DNA of 12,708 nucleotides from a virus (Duplodnaviria > Heunggongvirae > Uroviricota > Caudoviricetes). Positions 9,346 through 9,731 of the stretch are shown piece by piece. The stretch spans positions 1 through 12,708 of the IMG/VR virus record IMGVR_UViG_2737471845_000015; one strand, 5' to 3'. Positions within the stretch are counted from its first letter, which is position 1, and the number at the start of each line of letters is the position of its first letter. The notes beneath the pieces were generated by a model. It ran no database searches. It saw nothing but the letters and a program-made list of their open reading frames with translations, and was not told the DNA's origin. A program made the position numbers and the translations under genes.

Positions 9346-9731
9346 AAACAACCTCCATTGTTAATAAACGCCGCTATCCTTCGGCGCATTCCATTTTTGC
9401 GCCGCGATTATACATACTTCAGCACGCAACACAAAAACCGCTTGCCAGCGCTCGTTGAGTCGGGTTACATTTCCGCTGCACCTCATAAAACGGGTGCCGG
9501 GATTCTCAACCCGCTGACTACACACGCGCACAACCGCGCCAGCGGTTTTTTTGTGCGTACTGTATTGCCACGTCTTTTTCGCGTCAGAATTATGGCGGGG
9601 CGTACGGGGCCGACTTCGGTCGGGCCGGGATCGTGTGTAGCCGGTGTTGAGAACCCCGTACGTCTCGCCACCCCGAGATTCTCAACTCTGGATGGTGAGT
9701 TTTCAAAACTTACTATACACGAGGCCACGTC
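9346..9731. promoter_or_regulatory. Structured intergenic control region with divergent promoter candidates and repeated GATTCTCAAC motifs
   Basis: Minus-strand promoter candidate for the membrane gene: TATAAT (plus 9407-9412) with TTGTGT 16 nt upstream. Plus-strand candidates: TTGCCA (9442-9447)-17 nt-TTACAT (9465-9470), and TTGCCA (9565-9570)-17 nt-AATTAT. Motif GATTCTCAAC at 9501-9510 and 9676-9685, inverted copy GTTGAGAAC at 9645-9653. UUCG-type hairpin CCGACttcgGTCGG at 9610-9623. Long-range stem CGTACGGGG (9601-9609) / CCCCGTACG (9654-9662). Confidence 0.45.
9532..9552 (+). terminator. Intrinsic terminator-like hairpin plus T-run within the intergenic region
   Basis: AACCGC (9532-9537), loop GCCA, GCGGTT (9542-9547), then a T-run to 9552 (7 T). 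It is on the plus strand, about 65-85 nt downstream of the TTGCCA/TTACAT promoter candidate. Confidence 0.5.

Follow-up and report, generated by a model that had tools for sequence, protein, structure and literature searches.

An unannotated C4-type antisense RNA with an IsrK-like leader, predicted ahead of the replication genes of a P2-like prophage

Which kind of regulation is indicated by a ten-base motif that recurs three times in quick succession just upstream of a phage replication operon? The window analysed here, a stretch of 12,708 nucleotides of viral DNA (IMG/VR record IMGVR_UViG_2737471845_000015), raised this question: the original prediction had described a structured element at 9594-9690 with a UUCG hairpin, a long-range stem and three copies of the motif GATTCTCAAC, and had proposed binding sites for a regulator protein as its first option and a structured RNA leader as another. 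As judged from sequence and family models, the element is an unannotated copy of the phage C4/CI antisense "immunity" RNA, preceded by an IsrK-like leader. It lies where it had been placed, but the functional unit is larger and extends from ~9442 to ~9735; its position upstream of the replication operon was borne out by an epsilon-like gene, a 121-aa ORF and gene A downstream. The features are collected in Table 1.

Table 1. Features of the RNA module and its surroundings, in window coordinates.
Feature	Positions	Strand	Basis or remark
Stop-free frame resembling P4 eta	8905..10038	+	Reading-frame comparison, 15 loci
Putative sigma-70-like promoter (TTGCCA, 18 nt, TACATT)	9442..9471	+	Consensus scan
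IsrK-like leader RNA	9478..9552	+	Rfam RF01394, 61.8 bits vs cut-off 50
Target site a1 (GATTCTCAAC)	9501..9510	+	Pairing core 9503-9510; loop of IsrK hairpin 2
Target site b1 (CTACACACG)	9518..9526	+	Complementary to loop 2 of the C4-type RNA
Predicted intrinsic terminator of the leader (AACCGCGCCAGCGGTT, then T run)	9532..9552	+	Terminator scan; third hairpin of the isrK model
C4/CI-type antisense RNA	9588..9675	+	RF01695 full-length match, fold, helix pairing in 15 loci
Antisense segment b' (UCGUGUGUAG)	9631..9640	+	Loop of C4 hairpin 2
Antisense segment a' (GUUGAGAA)	9646..9653	+	Unpaired 3' junction; part of the inverted repeat of the original prediction
Alternative hairpin (predicted)	9664..9703	+	Fold -16.2 kcal/mol, z = -2.8
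Target site a2 (GATTCTCAAC)	9677..9686	+	Pairing core 9679-9686
Target site b2 (CUAUACACGA)	9713..9723	+	Complementarity to b'
Epsilon-like gene (76 aa), predicted first regulated gene	9732..9962	+	Pfam PF25738 'Derepression', 29.1 bits vs cut-off 27
Second operon gene (121 aa)	10035..10400	+	phrog_3237
Replication initiator gene A of P2-type phage; runs off the window end	10407..12708	+	Pfam PF05840 Phage_GPA, E = 5.8e-131

The C4 antisense RNA model of Rfam matched the plus strand with 76.8 bits (cut-off 45, E = 5.6e-14) over its entire length (model positions 1-87 of 87), and the match was seen again when the sub-region was rescanned. The minimum-energy fold of this RNA was identical to the structure of the Rfam model (-49.1 kcal/mol, z = -3.3, with 1 of 200 dinucleotide shuffles as stable): a closing stem of 17 bp (9593-9609 with 9654-9670), a first hairpin CCGAC-UUCG-GUCGG (9610-9623), a second hairpin (9624-9645) with a loop of 12 nt, and an unpaired 3' junction (9646-9653). 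The UUCG tetraloop hairpin had thus been seen correctly, as had the pairing of CGTACGGGG (9601-9609) with CCCCGTACG (9654-9662), which is a portion of the closing stem. This stem resembles a tRNA acceptor and is followed by a short unpaired C-rich tail; a stable closing stem with a short C-rich tail is tied to release by RNase P. Beyond C4 and isrK, an E-value-threshold Rfam scan of 9350-9800 returned no further RNA family.

The isrK match, separated from the C4 match by a gap of 35 nt, covered model positions 1-77 of 77. The leader comprises three hairpins, the second of which displays a1 in its loop (CGGG-AUUCUCAA-CCCG), while the third is an intrinsic terminator whose hairpin (9532-9547) and T run were found by the terminator scan independently of the isrK model. 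The promoter-like site ends 7 nt ahead of the isrK match, its predicted start (~9478) coincides with the first base of that match, and promoter-like sequence was recognised by eye at the equivalent place in 15 of 15 loci (e.g. TTGCCT...TATAGT in P4 and TTGACT...TATATT in a lambdoid locus). In P4, PLE and t1 are the positional counterparts of this putative promoter and of the leader terminator, and the leader itself corresponds to the P4 seqA leader and to the c4-a1b1 motif, which has no Rfam accession of its own in the table of Weinberg et al. 2010. The consensus scan also reported a second promoter-like site at 9565-9593, which could give rise to a different transcript architecture. It was not adopted as the promoter of the C4-type RNA: its -10 hexamer coincides with conserved sequence that flanks the C4 model on the 5' side, and for its -35 hexamer, the closest relatives have TCGCCA and the lambdoid and P4 spacers no counterpart. 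As to SOS control, no LexA-box-like CTGT-N8-ACAG was found close to the promoter, and the four matches elsewhere in the window correspond to chance frequency.

The motif itself finds its place in this arrangement: the GATTCTCAAC copies are the upstream and downstream targets (a1 and a2) of the antisense RNA, and GTTGAGAA is located in its unpaired junction. With at most one mismatch allowed, the window holds three copies against 0.81 expected, all within 186 bases, in agreement with the three copies in under 200 bp of the original prediction. The copy at 9501-9510 was positioned as claimed; for the inverted repeat, the sequences are present, but GTTGAGAA lies at 9646-9653 and not 9645-9652, and the downstream TTCTCAAC at 9679-9686 and not 9678-9685, inside a full GATTCTCAAC at 9677-9686.

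A second triple motif, CTAYACACG, occurs at 9518-9526 (+), 9632-9640 (-) and 9713-9721 (+), i.e. three copies against 0.12 expected, a number reached in 0 of 200 shuffles. This motif set and the hairpin at 9624-9645 had both been missed previously. The loop CGUGUGUAG of the C4-type RNA pairs with CTACACACG (9518-9526) and with CTATACACGA (9713-9722), and the b2:b' helix comprises 10 bp, one G-U pair included. Site b2 overlaps the Shine-Dalgarno sequence GAGG (9720-9723), 8 nt ahead of the ATG at 9732, and in most of the 15 loci it adjoins or overlaps the ribosome-binding site of the ORF next downstream. The order is a then b on the targets and b' then a' on the RNA, and this mirrored order is what antiparallel RNA pairing needs.

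Downstream of the C4-type RNA, an alternative hairpin (Table 1) re-uses the 3' strand of the closing stem, exposes a2 in a loop of 8 nt and is followed by a UUUU run (9700-9703). Such a hairpin was predicted in all 15 loci with differing arms (CUCACCA/UGGUGAG, GCUACCACC/GGUGGUAGC, GCUAUCGCC/GGCGAUAGC and CCACCGC/GCGGUGG). P4 t4 is a possible counterpart, in which case the hairpin would presumably function as a terminator.

A covariation analysis in homologous regions had been suggested as a check, and was carried out on 15 loci. The relatives were obtained by DNA searches of a phage collection, while a protein search of genome contigs with the 76-aa epsilon-like protein found only two loci. 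The tandem of isrK and C4 was present in 14 of 14 related loci, P4 and N15 among them. In the alignment of 15 loci, 96.2% of cells pair, as compared with 75.9% after shuffling and 35-45% when the partners were slid, and 27 pairs have changed on both sides. The three C4 helices (17, 5 and 5 bp) were 100% paired, with 8, 4 and 1 pairs (13 in total) changed on both sides. Of the intermolecular pairs, 14 of 17 have changed on both sides, namely 6 of 8 in the a1:a' helix and 8 of 9 in the b1:b' helix, where 94% of cells are paired; a1:a' is only 8 bp long, and 11 of 15 loci fail to form its outermost pair. G-U pairs occupy five cells of the two intermolecular helices.

Sites a2 and b2 were assessed with a matrix of cognate versus non-cognate duplexes rather than by column-wise pair counts, because the MAFFT alignment is out of register between lineages there. 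Cognate duplexes had mean energies of -28.9 kcal/mol (leader site) and -28.4 kcal/mol (downstream site), and non-cognate duplexes -15.8 and -17.4 kcal/mol, respectively, so that cognate pairing is ~11-13 kcal/mol more stable; the cognate partner was the best in 14 of 15 rows for the leader site and in 15 of 15 rows for the downstream site. Spurious rows of the search for the longest complementary stretch were left out (P88 a-sites, N15 b2 and YDC107 b2); the P88-type target sites read TTTCCAC and CAACTACAG. Since the RNA and its two target sets vary in concert and cognate pairing is stronger, the motifs are RNA-RNA pairing sites and not protein-binding sites. Of the two options offered at the outset, the structured RNA leader is therefore the one that holds, with a curated C4 family following isrK and compensatory changes across 15 phages.

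The genes that would be under control were identified by homology as an epsilon-family gene and replication gene A. On sequence similarity, the 76-aa protein is homologous to epsilon, the helper derepression protein of P4: it aligns to P4 epsilon with 30% identity over 50 aa (E = 4e-7). Its PF25738 score is barely over the cut-off, as compared with 170 bits for P4 epsilon itself. The 121-aa ORF had no Pfam or NCBIfam match and no similarity to P4 orf151, giving no sign of synteny with P4 past epsilon. Gene A is labelled as replication endonuclease in identical prophages. A stop-free frame passes through the RNA genes, with a conserved AUG at 9592-9594 and a stop that overlaps the ATG of the 121-aa ORF (ATGA). 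From isrK to the C4 end, 10 of the 15 loci, P4 among them, lack stops in this eta-like register, as compared with 0 and 1 loci in the two remaining ones. In other phages, the module precedes genes annotated as antirepressor, Rha or BRO.

Taken together, the region is very probably an RNA-based immunity module carried by a P2-like (P88/Xuanwuvirus-type) prophage, homologous to P4 seqA/CI RNA/seqC and to P1 c4. The sigma-70-type promoter would start a transcript at ~9478, whose first 75 nt would form the IsrK-like leader bearing a1 and b1 and closed by the intrinsic terminator. Read-through transcripts would include the C4-type RNA; if P1 and P4 are a guide, RNase P and 3' trimming would free it from the longer precursor as a stable species of ~77-80 nt. 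Its antisense parts, loop 2 (b') and the 3' junction (a'), are predicted to pair with a1/b1 in the leader, where the P4 equivalent enhances termination and autoregulates the RNA, and with a2/b2 downstream (9677-9686 and 9713-9722), where b' would cover the Shine-Dalgarno sequence of the epsilon-like gene. Translation of this gene would be blocked and transcription would end early; as a consequence, a lysogen would produce transcripts from this promoter without expressing the epsilon-like antirepressor, the 121-aa ORF and gene A from it. The specificity of immunity would be set by the a and b sequences. Repression at the locus, action in trans, termination and a role in lysogeny are all predicted for the C4-type RNA from its relatives, and the prophage C repressor (HTH gene at 6118-6531, minus strand) presumably provides the primary immunity of this phage.

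The same arrangement can be read with another RNA as the regulator, which is possible, if somewhat unlikely. As in Gifsy-1, the terminated IsrK-like transcript (9478-9552) would be the key trans-acting RNA: because it carries a1 and b1, this short RNA would bind the read-through mRNA at its C4-like part, or titrate the processed C4-like RNA, and the mRNA would be remodelled such that downstream translation is switched on, leaving the C4-shaped element mainly as an inhibitory structure in the mRNA. This reading and the antisense repression favoured here overlap, and the difference is which RNA is the regulator. The isrK-plus-C4 layout is that of Gifsy-1, where IsrK activates orf45-anrP translation in trans and an ~80-nt STnc1160 is processed (Hershko-Shalev et al., PMC4825925), and the terminator would yield a short IsrK-like RNA; the C4 3' strand can refold into a second hairpin in 15 of 15 loci, so alternative structures are possible; and in Gifsy-1 the effect of IsrK persisted when the C4-like species was over-expressed (PMC4825925). 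Against this, P1 c4 RNA represses Ant synthesis (PMC8546580), processed CI RNA of P4 drives premature termination (PMC4825925), and a pure sponge leaves unexplained why a2/b2 are conserved and co-vary with the RNA, with b2 lying over the ribosome-binding site. An RNA that is never released, with repeats that merely choose between termination and read-through in cis, would be compatible with every site being on one transcript, with two terminator-like hairpins and with mutually exclusive structures predicted in all loci. Such a leader or attenuator is nevertheless improbable: in P1, P4 and N15, what defines the family is an RNA that is processed, stable and active in trans (PMC4825925, PMC3632133, PMC8546580 and PMC4488713), and a closing stem of such high stability, followed by a short C-rich tail that is unpaired, fits a released RNA.

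The first option of the original prediction, that the GATTCTCAAC/GTTGAGAA copies are DNA sites for the MarR-like 88-aa protein (8546-8812) or the gene A protein, could build on three copies of a 10-bp motif in 186 bp and a winged-helix gene ~700 bp upstream, and co-variation between phages could in principle track a changing DNA-binding specificity. It has become very improbable, since the copies fall on the loop and junction of curated RNA structures, the two direct copies in hairpin loops and the inverted one in a single-stranded junction of one transcript, and both target sets co-vary. An unrelated second motif set behaves alike, in the mirrored order that RNA pairing demands; the five G-U cells preserve RNA pairing while breaking DNA sequence identity; the module occurs in lambdoid and N15-like phages and in P4, where the annotated neighbour genes differ; and the homologous P4 sites are the genetically defined RNA targets seqA, seqB and seqC, as summarised in PMC4825925 and PMC3632133. 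Equally hard to credit is that the region codes for protein (371-aa ORF, 8923-10038) and that its RNA structure is incidental. A stop-free frame does span the region, 10 of 15 loci are open in the same register, and in these 10 the distance from isrK to C4 is a multiple of three, yet the translation is rich in Ser, Thr and Cys and not protein-like, the frame overlaps an opposite-strand gene with phage homologues (8878-9345, phrog_6315) and, in a different frame, the epsilon-like ORF, and the compensatory base-pair changes indicate selection on RNA structure. The P4 eta frame reportedly matters because its translation prevents termination (work attributed to Forti et al. in 1999), a role that agrees with the antisense RNA model.

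Since the element is a known regulatory RNA and the motif its pairing sites on its own transcript, the finding is real but ordinary: neither the RNA family nor its mechanism is new, the extension to a P2-like (P88/Xuanwuvirus) host phage is modest, and knowledge of how such RNAs work is unchanged. The importance lies chiefly in annotation. The RNA pair is unannotated in identical RefSeq prophages, where no feature is listed between the two flanking CDS, and CDS calls over the module in related phage records are probably wrong: P88 carries a minus-strand hypothetical protein there, in cdtI, Stx2a_1447 and Lys8385 the region is under 382-aa 'antirepressor' or 'peptidase' genes, and N15 gene 32, annotated as 'transcriptional repressor', overlaps the RNA. 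The exact a'/b' allele was found in 9 of 5426 complete E. coli genomes and the surrounding 801 bases in 1296 of 5426, which fits diversified immunity specificities. The module probably adds a second level of control over lysogeny in a prophage type of about a quarter of complete E. coli genomes, with the epsilon-like gene as the predicted controlled switch, and it reveals many distinct specificity alleles.

A further idea is put forward tentatively and is, on balance, unlikely: in P88/Xuanwuvirus-type P2-family phages, a P4-type RNA module may gate the phage's own epsilon-type antirepressor and gene A, with RNA logic and antirepressor family shared with P4-like satellites. If true, it would open the way to RNA cross-talk between helper and satellite, in which a satellite CI RNA or IsrK-like sponge matching the helper's a/b sequences silences or triggers the helper, and would suggest that the P4 immunity-epsilon cassette has been exchanged with such helpers. 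The eta-like stop-free frame, shared by P4, lambdoid and P2-like modules, may also be a general device, and translating it from upstream early transcripts could override the RNA immunity.

Among known systems, P4 is organised in the order PLE promoter, seqA leader and t1, CI RNA (seqB), seqC, kil/eta, epsilon and alpha, and its CI RNA is processed (PMC4825925, PMC3632133). P4 has both Rfam matches in equal order (isrK at 8615-8692 and C4 at 8420-8507, minus strand), the same a/b layout with sequences of its own (GTGAGAA/TTCTCAC and TTCACAGG/CCTGTGAA), a b2 that adjoins the ribosome-binding site, a downstream epsilon-family gene with the replication gene last in the operon, and a stop-free frame through the RNA genes. 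In contrast to P4, the host element of the window is a full P2-type phage with capsid genes and not a satellite, its replication gene is gene A (a rolling-circle initiator) instead of the alpha primase, its leader-to-RNA spacer is 35 nt instead of 107 nt, and its epsilon-like gene comes first after the RNA and outside the read-through frame, whereas in P4 kil comes first and in frame. Because the a and b sequences differ, cross-immunity between the two would not be expected; non-cognate duplex energies were -12 to -19 kcal/mol.

The immI region of P1/P7 has the order a1 b1, c4 (a' b'), a2 b2, icd, ant; this comparison is based on the literature. Citron and Schuster, in 1990 and 1992, are said to have described P1 c4 with two antisense segments and targets duplicated upstream and downstream, the downstream set reportedly covering the ribosome-binding site of the first gene. 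P1 c4 is the founding member of RF01695, a processed antisense RNA that represses antirepressor synthesis (PMC8546580, PMC12197685). It differs in that its antirepressor Ant1/2 is unrelated to the epsilon family, and the literature searched ties IsrK to P4 and lambdoid prophages rather than to P1. N15 carries the isrK-plus-C4 tandem ahead of icd-like and antirepressor genes and has the a' sequence GUUGAGAA in common with the window, but its b specificity is CUUCUUGU, it is a linear-plasmid prophage with downstream genes of another type, and its stop-free register is interrupted; in N15 immA, the antirepressor is under a small processed RNA (Ravin et al. 1999, as cited in PMC4488713).

In Gifsy-1, whose IsrK is the founding member of the Rfam isrK family, the locus consists of IsrK, STnc1160 (orf45) and AnrP, and its authors noted the homology to P4 seqA and CI (PMC4825925). 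A promoter, a leader with terminator, an ~80-nt processed RNA downstream and an antirepressor-type gene have all been described for that locus (PMC4825925). Gifsy-1 differs in being a lambdoid prophage and in its published mechanism, in which the short IsrK activates translation and the AntQ antiterminator is affected; Gifsy-1 is also the only locus for which IsrK is known to bind Hfq and to activate the read-through mRNA in trans (PMC4825925).

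Two matches in total were returned when the entire window was scanned against Rfam at curated thresholds, both of them full length: C4 antisense RNA (RF01695; 76.8 bits, cut-off 45) and isrK (RF01394; 61.8 bits, cut-off 50). A looser scan of 9350-9800 found nothing beyond this pair. Folding of the C4 match as RNA yields a 17-bp closing stem, two hairpins, the first of them with the UUCG loop, and a junction of 8 unpaired nt (-49.1 kcal/mol, z = -3.3). The original prediction, made without database searches, had described a stem around a UUCG hairpin and an inverted repeat whose motif recurs upstream. 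The stem pairs as claimed, the hairpin and the upstream copy were found, and both arms of the inverted repeat are present, although their positions were off by one. If up to one mismatch is allowed, the window contains three copies of the 10-mer against 0.81 expected, all inside 186 bases.

The repeats could be assigned to the pairing segments of a C4 system. Antisense segment a', GUUGAGAA, is the junction that stays unpaired in the C4 RNA. The upstream copy of the motif, a1 (GAUUCUCAAC), is carried by the loop of IsrK hairpin 2, and the downstream copy, a2, by that of an additional hairpin. A second motif set, missed in the original prediction, comprises b' in the loop of C4 hairpin 2 and its counterparts b1 and b2, giving three copies against 0.12 expected, which was matched in 0/200 shuffles. 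Pairing of b2 with b' reaches 10 bp (9713-9722) when one G-U pair is counted, and b2 overlaps the Shine-Dalgarno sequence of a 76-aa, epsilon-like ORF. The targets run a then b and the RNA runs b' then a', as required for antiparallel pairing.

Positions of features in the window, or in a compared locus where an L-number is given
Feature	Position	Strand	Remarks
Part of another, lambda-type prophage	1-4581		left 4.6 kb
Large terminase	1324-3423	-	PF05876 and PF20454
DUF1441 gene	3432-3971	-	in left lambda-type prophage
155-aa gene	8878-9345	-	phrog_6315; own GGAGG ribosome-binding site
Stop-free frame	8905-10038	+	through both RNA genes; stop overlaps 121-aa ORF ATG (ATGA, 10035-10038)
Promoter-like site	9442-9471		TTGCCA, 18 nt, TACATT; ends 7 nt ahead of isrK match
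isrK match	9478-9552		
Upstream motif copy	9501-9510		GATTCTCAAC
b1	9518-9526		CTACACACG, complement of b'
Intrinsic terminator	9532-9552		end of isrK match
C4 match	9588-9675		
Stem strands	9601-9609, 9654-9662		CGTACGGGG with CCCCGTACG
UUCG hairpin	9610-9623		CCGAC-UUCG-GUCGG
C4 hairpin 2	9624-9645		12-nt loop
b'	9632-9640		CGUGUGUAG
Inverted-repeat arms	9646-9653, 9679-9686		GTTGAGAA and downstream TTCTCAAC
a2 hairpin	9664-9699	+	then UUUU (to 9703); a2 in 8-nt loop
Small hairpin	9693-9715	+	GUGAGUUUU-CAA-AAACUUAC, ending where b2 starts
b2	9713-9721		CTATACACG
Shine-Dalgarno	9720-9723		GAGG; epsilon-like ORF, ATG at 9732
N15 gene 32	L006 1600-1890		'transcriptional repressor'
P88 AIZ95121.1	L002 4055-4243	-	hypothetical protein
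sRNA-Xcc1 (RF02221) match	L013 2523-2606	+	phage TL-2011c; 79.6 bits vs 53
ParM-like and partition-family genes	L001 14007-15282; L016 13507-14785		straight after gene A, downstream of window

Comparison was extended to 14 further loci, namely P88, a Citrobacter Xuanwuvirus, a Salmonella prophage, a contig labelled Vagococcus, seven lambdoid or Stx phages, N15 and two relatives, and P4, and the isrK and C4 tandem was above Rfam thresholds in 14/14. On the resulting 15-sequence alignment, the covariation check proposed with the original prediction showed compensatory changes in the C4 helices and in both leader pairings. All cells were paired in the closing stem, the UUCG hairpin (5 bp) and hairpin 2 (5 bp), with 8, 4 and 1 pairs changed on both sides, while a1:a' (8 bp) and b1:b' (9 bp) were paired in 85.8% and 94.0% of cells, with 6 and 8 such pairs. 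The whole structure reached 96.2% cells paired, compared with 75.9% after shuffling of columns and 35-45% with partners displaced by 1-3 columns, and 0/500 shuffles attained any of the observed measures. Because the alignment lost register at the downstream sites, these were assessed by duplex energies of each RNA's antisense segment against each locus's targets. Cognate pairs averaged -28.9 kcal/mol at the leader targets a1/b1 (non-cognate -15.8, sd 3.9; cognate best in 14/15 rows) and -28.4 kcal/mol at the downstream targets a2/b2 (non-cognate -17.4, sd 3.4; best in 15/15 rows).

In the five near-identical P88-type modules, a and b differ almost completely in sequence and assort independently: the window and the 'Vagococcus' contig have a in common and differ in b, and the same is true of P88 compared with the Salmonella prophage. 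Only 9/5426 complete E. coli genomes contain precisely the a'/b' allele found in the window, against 1296 for the surrounding 801 bases, and a rare allele in widespread surroundings is the pattern that would be expected of diversified immunity specificities. The 'Vagococcus' contig (NZ_JBQPOM010000071.1, labelled as the Gram-positive Vagococcus sp.) carries an enterobacterial P88-type module with the a specificity of the window and an epsilon-like protein 84% identical; its label probably reflects contamination or a mislabelled assembly.

The window does not come from P4. The region is identical or nearly identical to a prophage beside btuC in E. coli strain 100181 and O103:H2 12009, and its nearest named phages are P88 and other Xuanwuvirus (Peduoviridae; 82-88% identity). 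An integrase and an HTH repressor on the minus strand are followed by plus-strand early genes ending with a MarR-like 88-aa protein, one minus-strand gene, the two RNAs, the 76-aa ORF, a 121-aa ORF, replication gene A (PF05840, E = 5.8e-131), ParM, and P2-type portal, terminase and capsid genes. The 76-aa ORF falls in the Pfam 'Derepression' family (29.1 bits, cut-off 27), which P4 epsilon defines (170 bits), and shows 30% identity to P4 epsilon across 50 residues. The minus-strand 155-aa gene lies between early operon and RNA module in what looks like a variable cargo slot, occupied by different plus-strand genes in P88 and the Citrobacter phage. ParM-like and partition-family genes in this place are unusual for P2 itself and hint that plasmid-like maintenance may be an option. 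On its left, the window is of lambda type, whereas btuC lies on this side in the two genomes examined around the element (99.9-100% identity over 9300-10100); two prophages are therefore adjacent in the window's source.

By homology, short transcripts would end at the leader terminator and read-through transcripts would contain the C4 RNA. In P1 and P4 the precursor is cleaved by RNase P, and the closing stem with its short unpaired C-rich tail is compatible with such cleavage. Once released, the RNA would pair with a2/b2, masking the epsilon-like gene's ribosome-binding site and leading to termination; in the lysogen, the epsilon-like protein would then not be made, and the 121-aa ORF and gene A would likewise stay silent. 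By binding a1/b1, the C4 RNA would exert feedback on its own synthesis, as is reportedly the case at P4 terminator t1 (Briani et al., 2000). The a2 hairpin takes up the 3' strand of the C4 closing stem a second time, and the two are mutually exclusive; it is predicted in 15/15 loci, its arms differing with compensatory changes, and P4 terminator t4 may be its equivalent. The small hairpin before b2 shares bases with its 3' arm, possibly forming another alternative structure (fold of 9676-9740, z = -4.1). No LexA-box-like sequence was found near the promoter.

The original prediction had listed binding sites for a phage regulator first, on account of the three clustered copies. These copies lie in RNA loops and a junction and are mirrored by the second motif set, what is conserved is complementarity and not a fixed sequence, and the module travels among phages with different annotated neighbour genes; the protein-site reading is not supported, and the structured RNA leader offered as an alternative was right in substance. 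Within an RNA-based reading, the main rival concerns the direction of regulation, since work on Gifsy-1 suggests that the short IsrK RNA can activate (PMC4825925).

The stop-free frame through the RNA genes contains the epsilon-like ORF in another frame. From isrK to the C4 end, the register that corresponds to this frame (counted from the C4 match) lacks stops in 10/15 loci and the other two registers in 0 and 1, with 7 stop codons in total against 29 and 24, and isrK-to-C4 lengths and spacers in open loci are all multiples of three. The frame was noted in the window and in compared loci L002 (P88), L003, L004 (the 'Vagococcus' contig), L005, L007, L008, L010, L012, L013 (TL-2011c) and L015. 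The records of three lambdoid phages, cdtI, Stx2a_1447 and Lys8385, show it as one long gene of 382-383 aa running into an antirepressor-type gene; two of them call it 'antirepressor' and one 'peptidase'. The equivalent P4 frame is eta, whose translation from an upstream promoter reportedly prevents CI-dependent termination (Forti et al., 1999). The C4 and isrK RNAs are without annotation in RefSeq records, and CDS calls cross them in several phage records. Among them are N15 gene 32, which overlaps the C4 match, and P88 AIZ95121.1, which overlaps the matches to both RNAs; each is probably a misannotation or else an older name of the RNA gene. The sRNA-Xcc1 match in the Stx-type phage TL-2011c lies ~830 bases downstream of its C4 RNA.

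The P1 c4 layout is described as a1 b1 / a' b' / a2 b2; the three-site layout of the window matches it, and its sites correspond to P4 seqA, seqB and seqC. In P4, as summarised by Hershko-Shalev et al., an untranslated transcript is processed to CI RNA, which pairs with seqA upstream and seqC downstream to cause premature termination (PMC4825925). The isrK and C4 tandem has been treated as one system, with IsrK as the seqA leader and C4 as the CI RNA, and comparable systems occur in P1, P7, N15 and some lambdoid prophages (PMC3632133); the phage motifs of Weinberg et al. include 'c4 antisense RNA' and 'c4-a1b1' (PMC2864571). The literature and Rfam already cover the RNA family and its partner leader, together with the three-site architecture and the mechanism. 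In the literature searched, I found no description of P2-like phages of the P88/Xuanwuvirus type in which this module controls an epsilon homologue together with gene A, and this setting is a modest extension of the known system.
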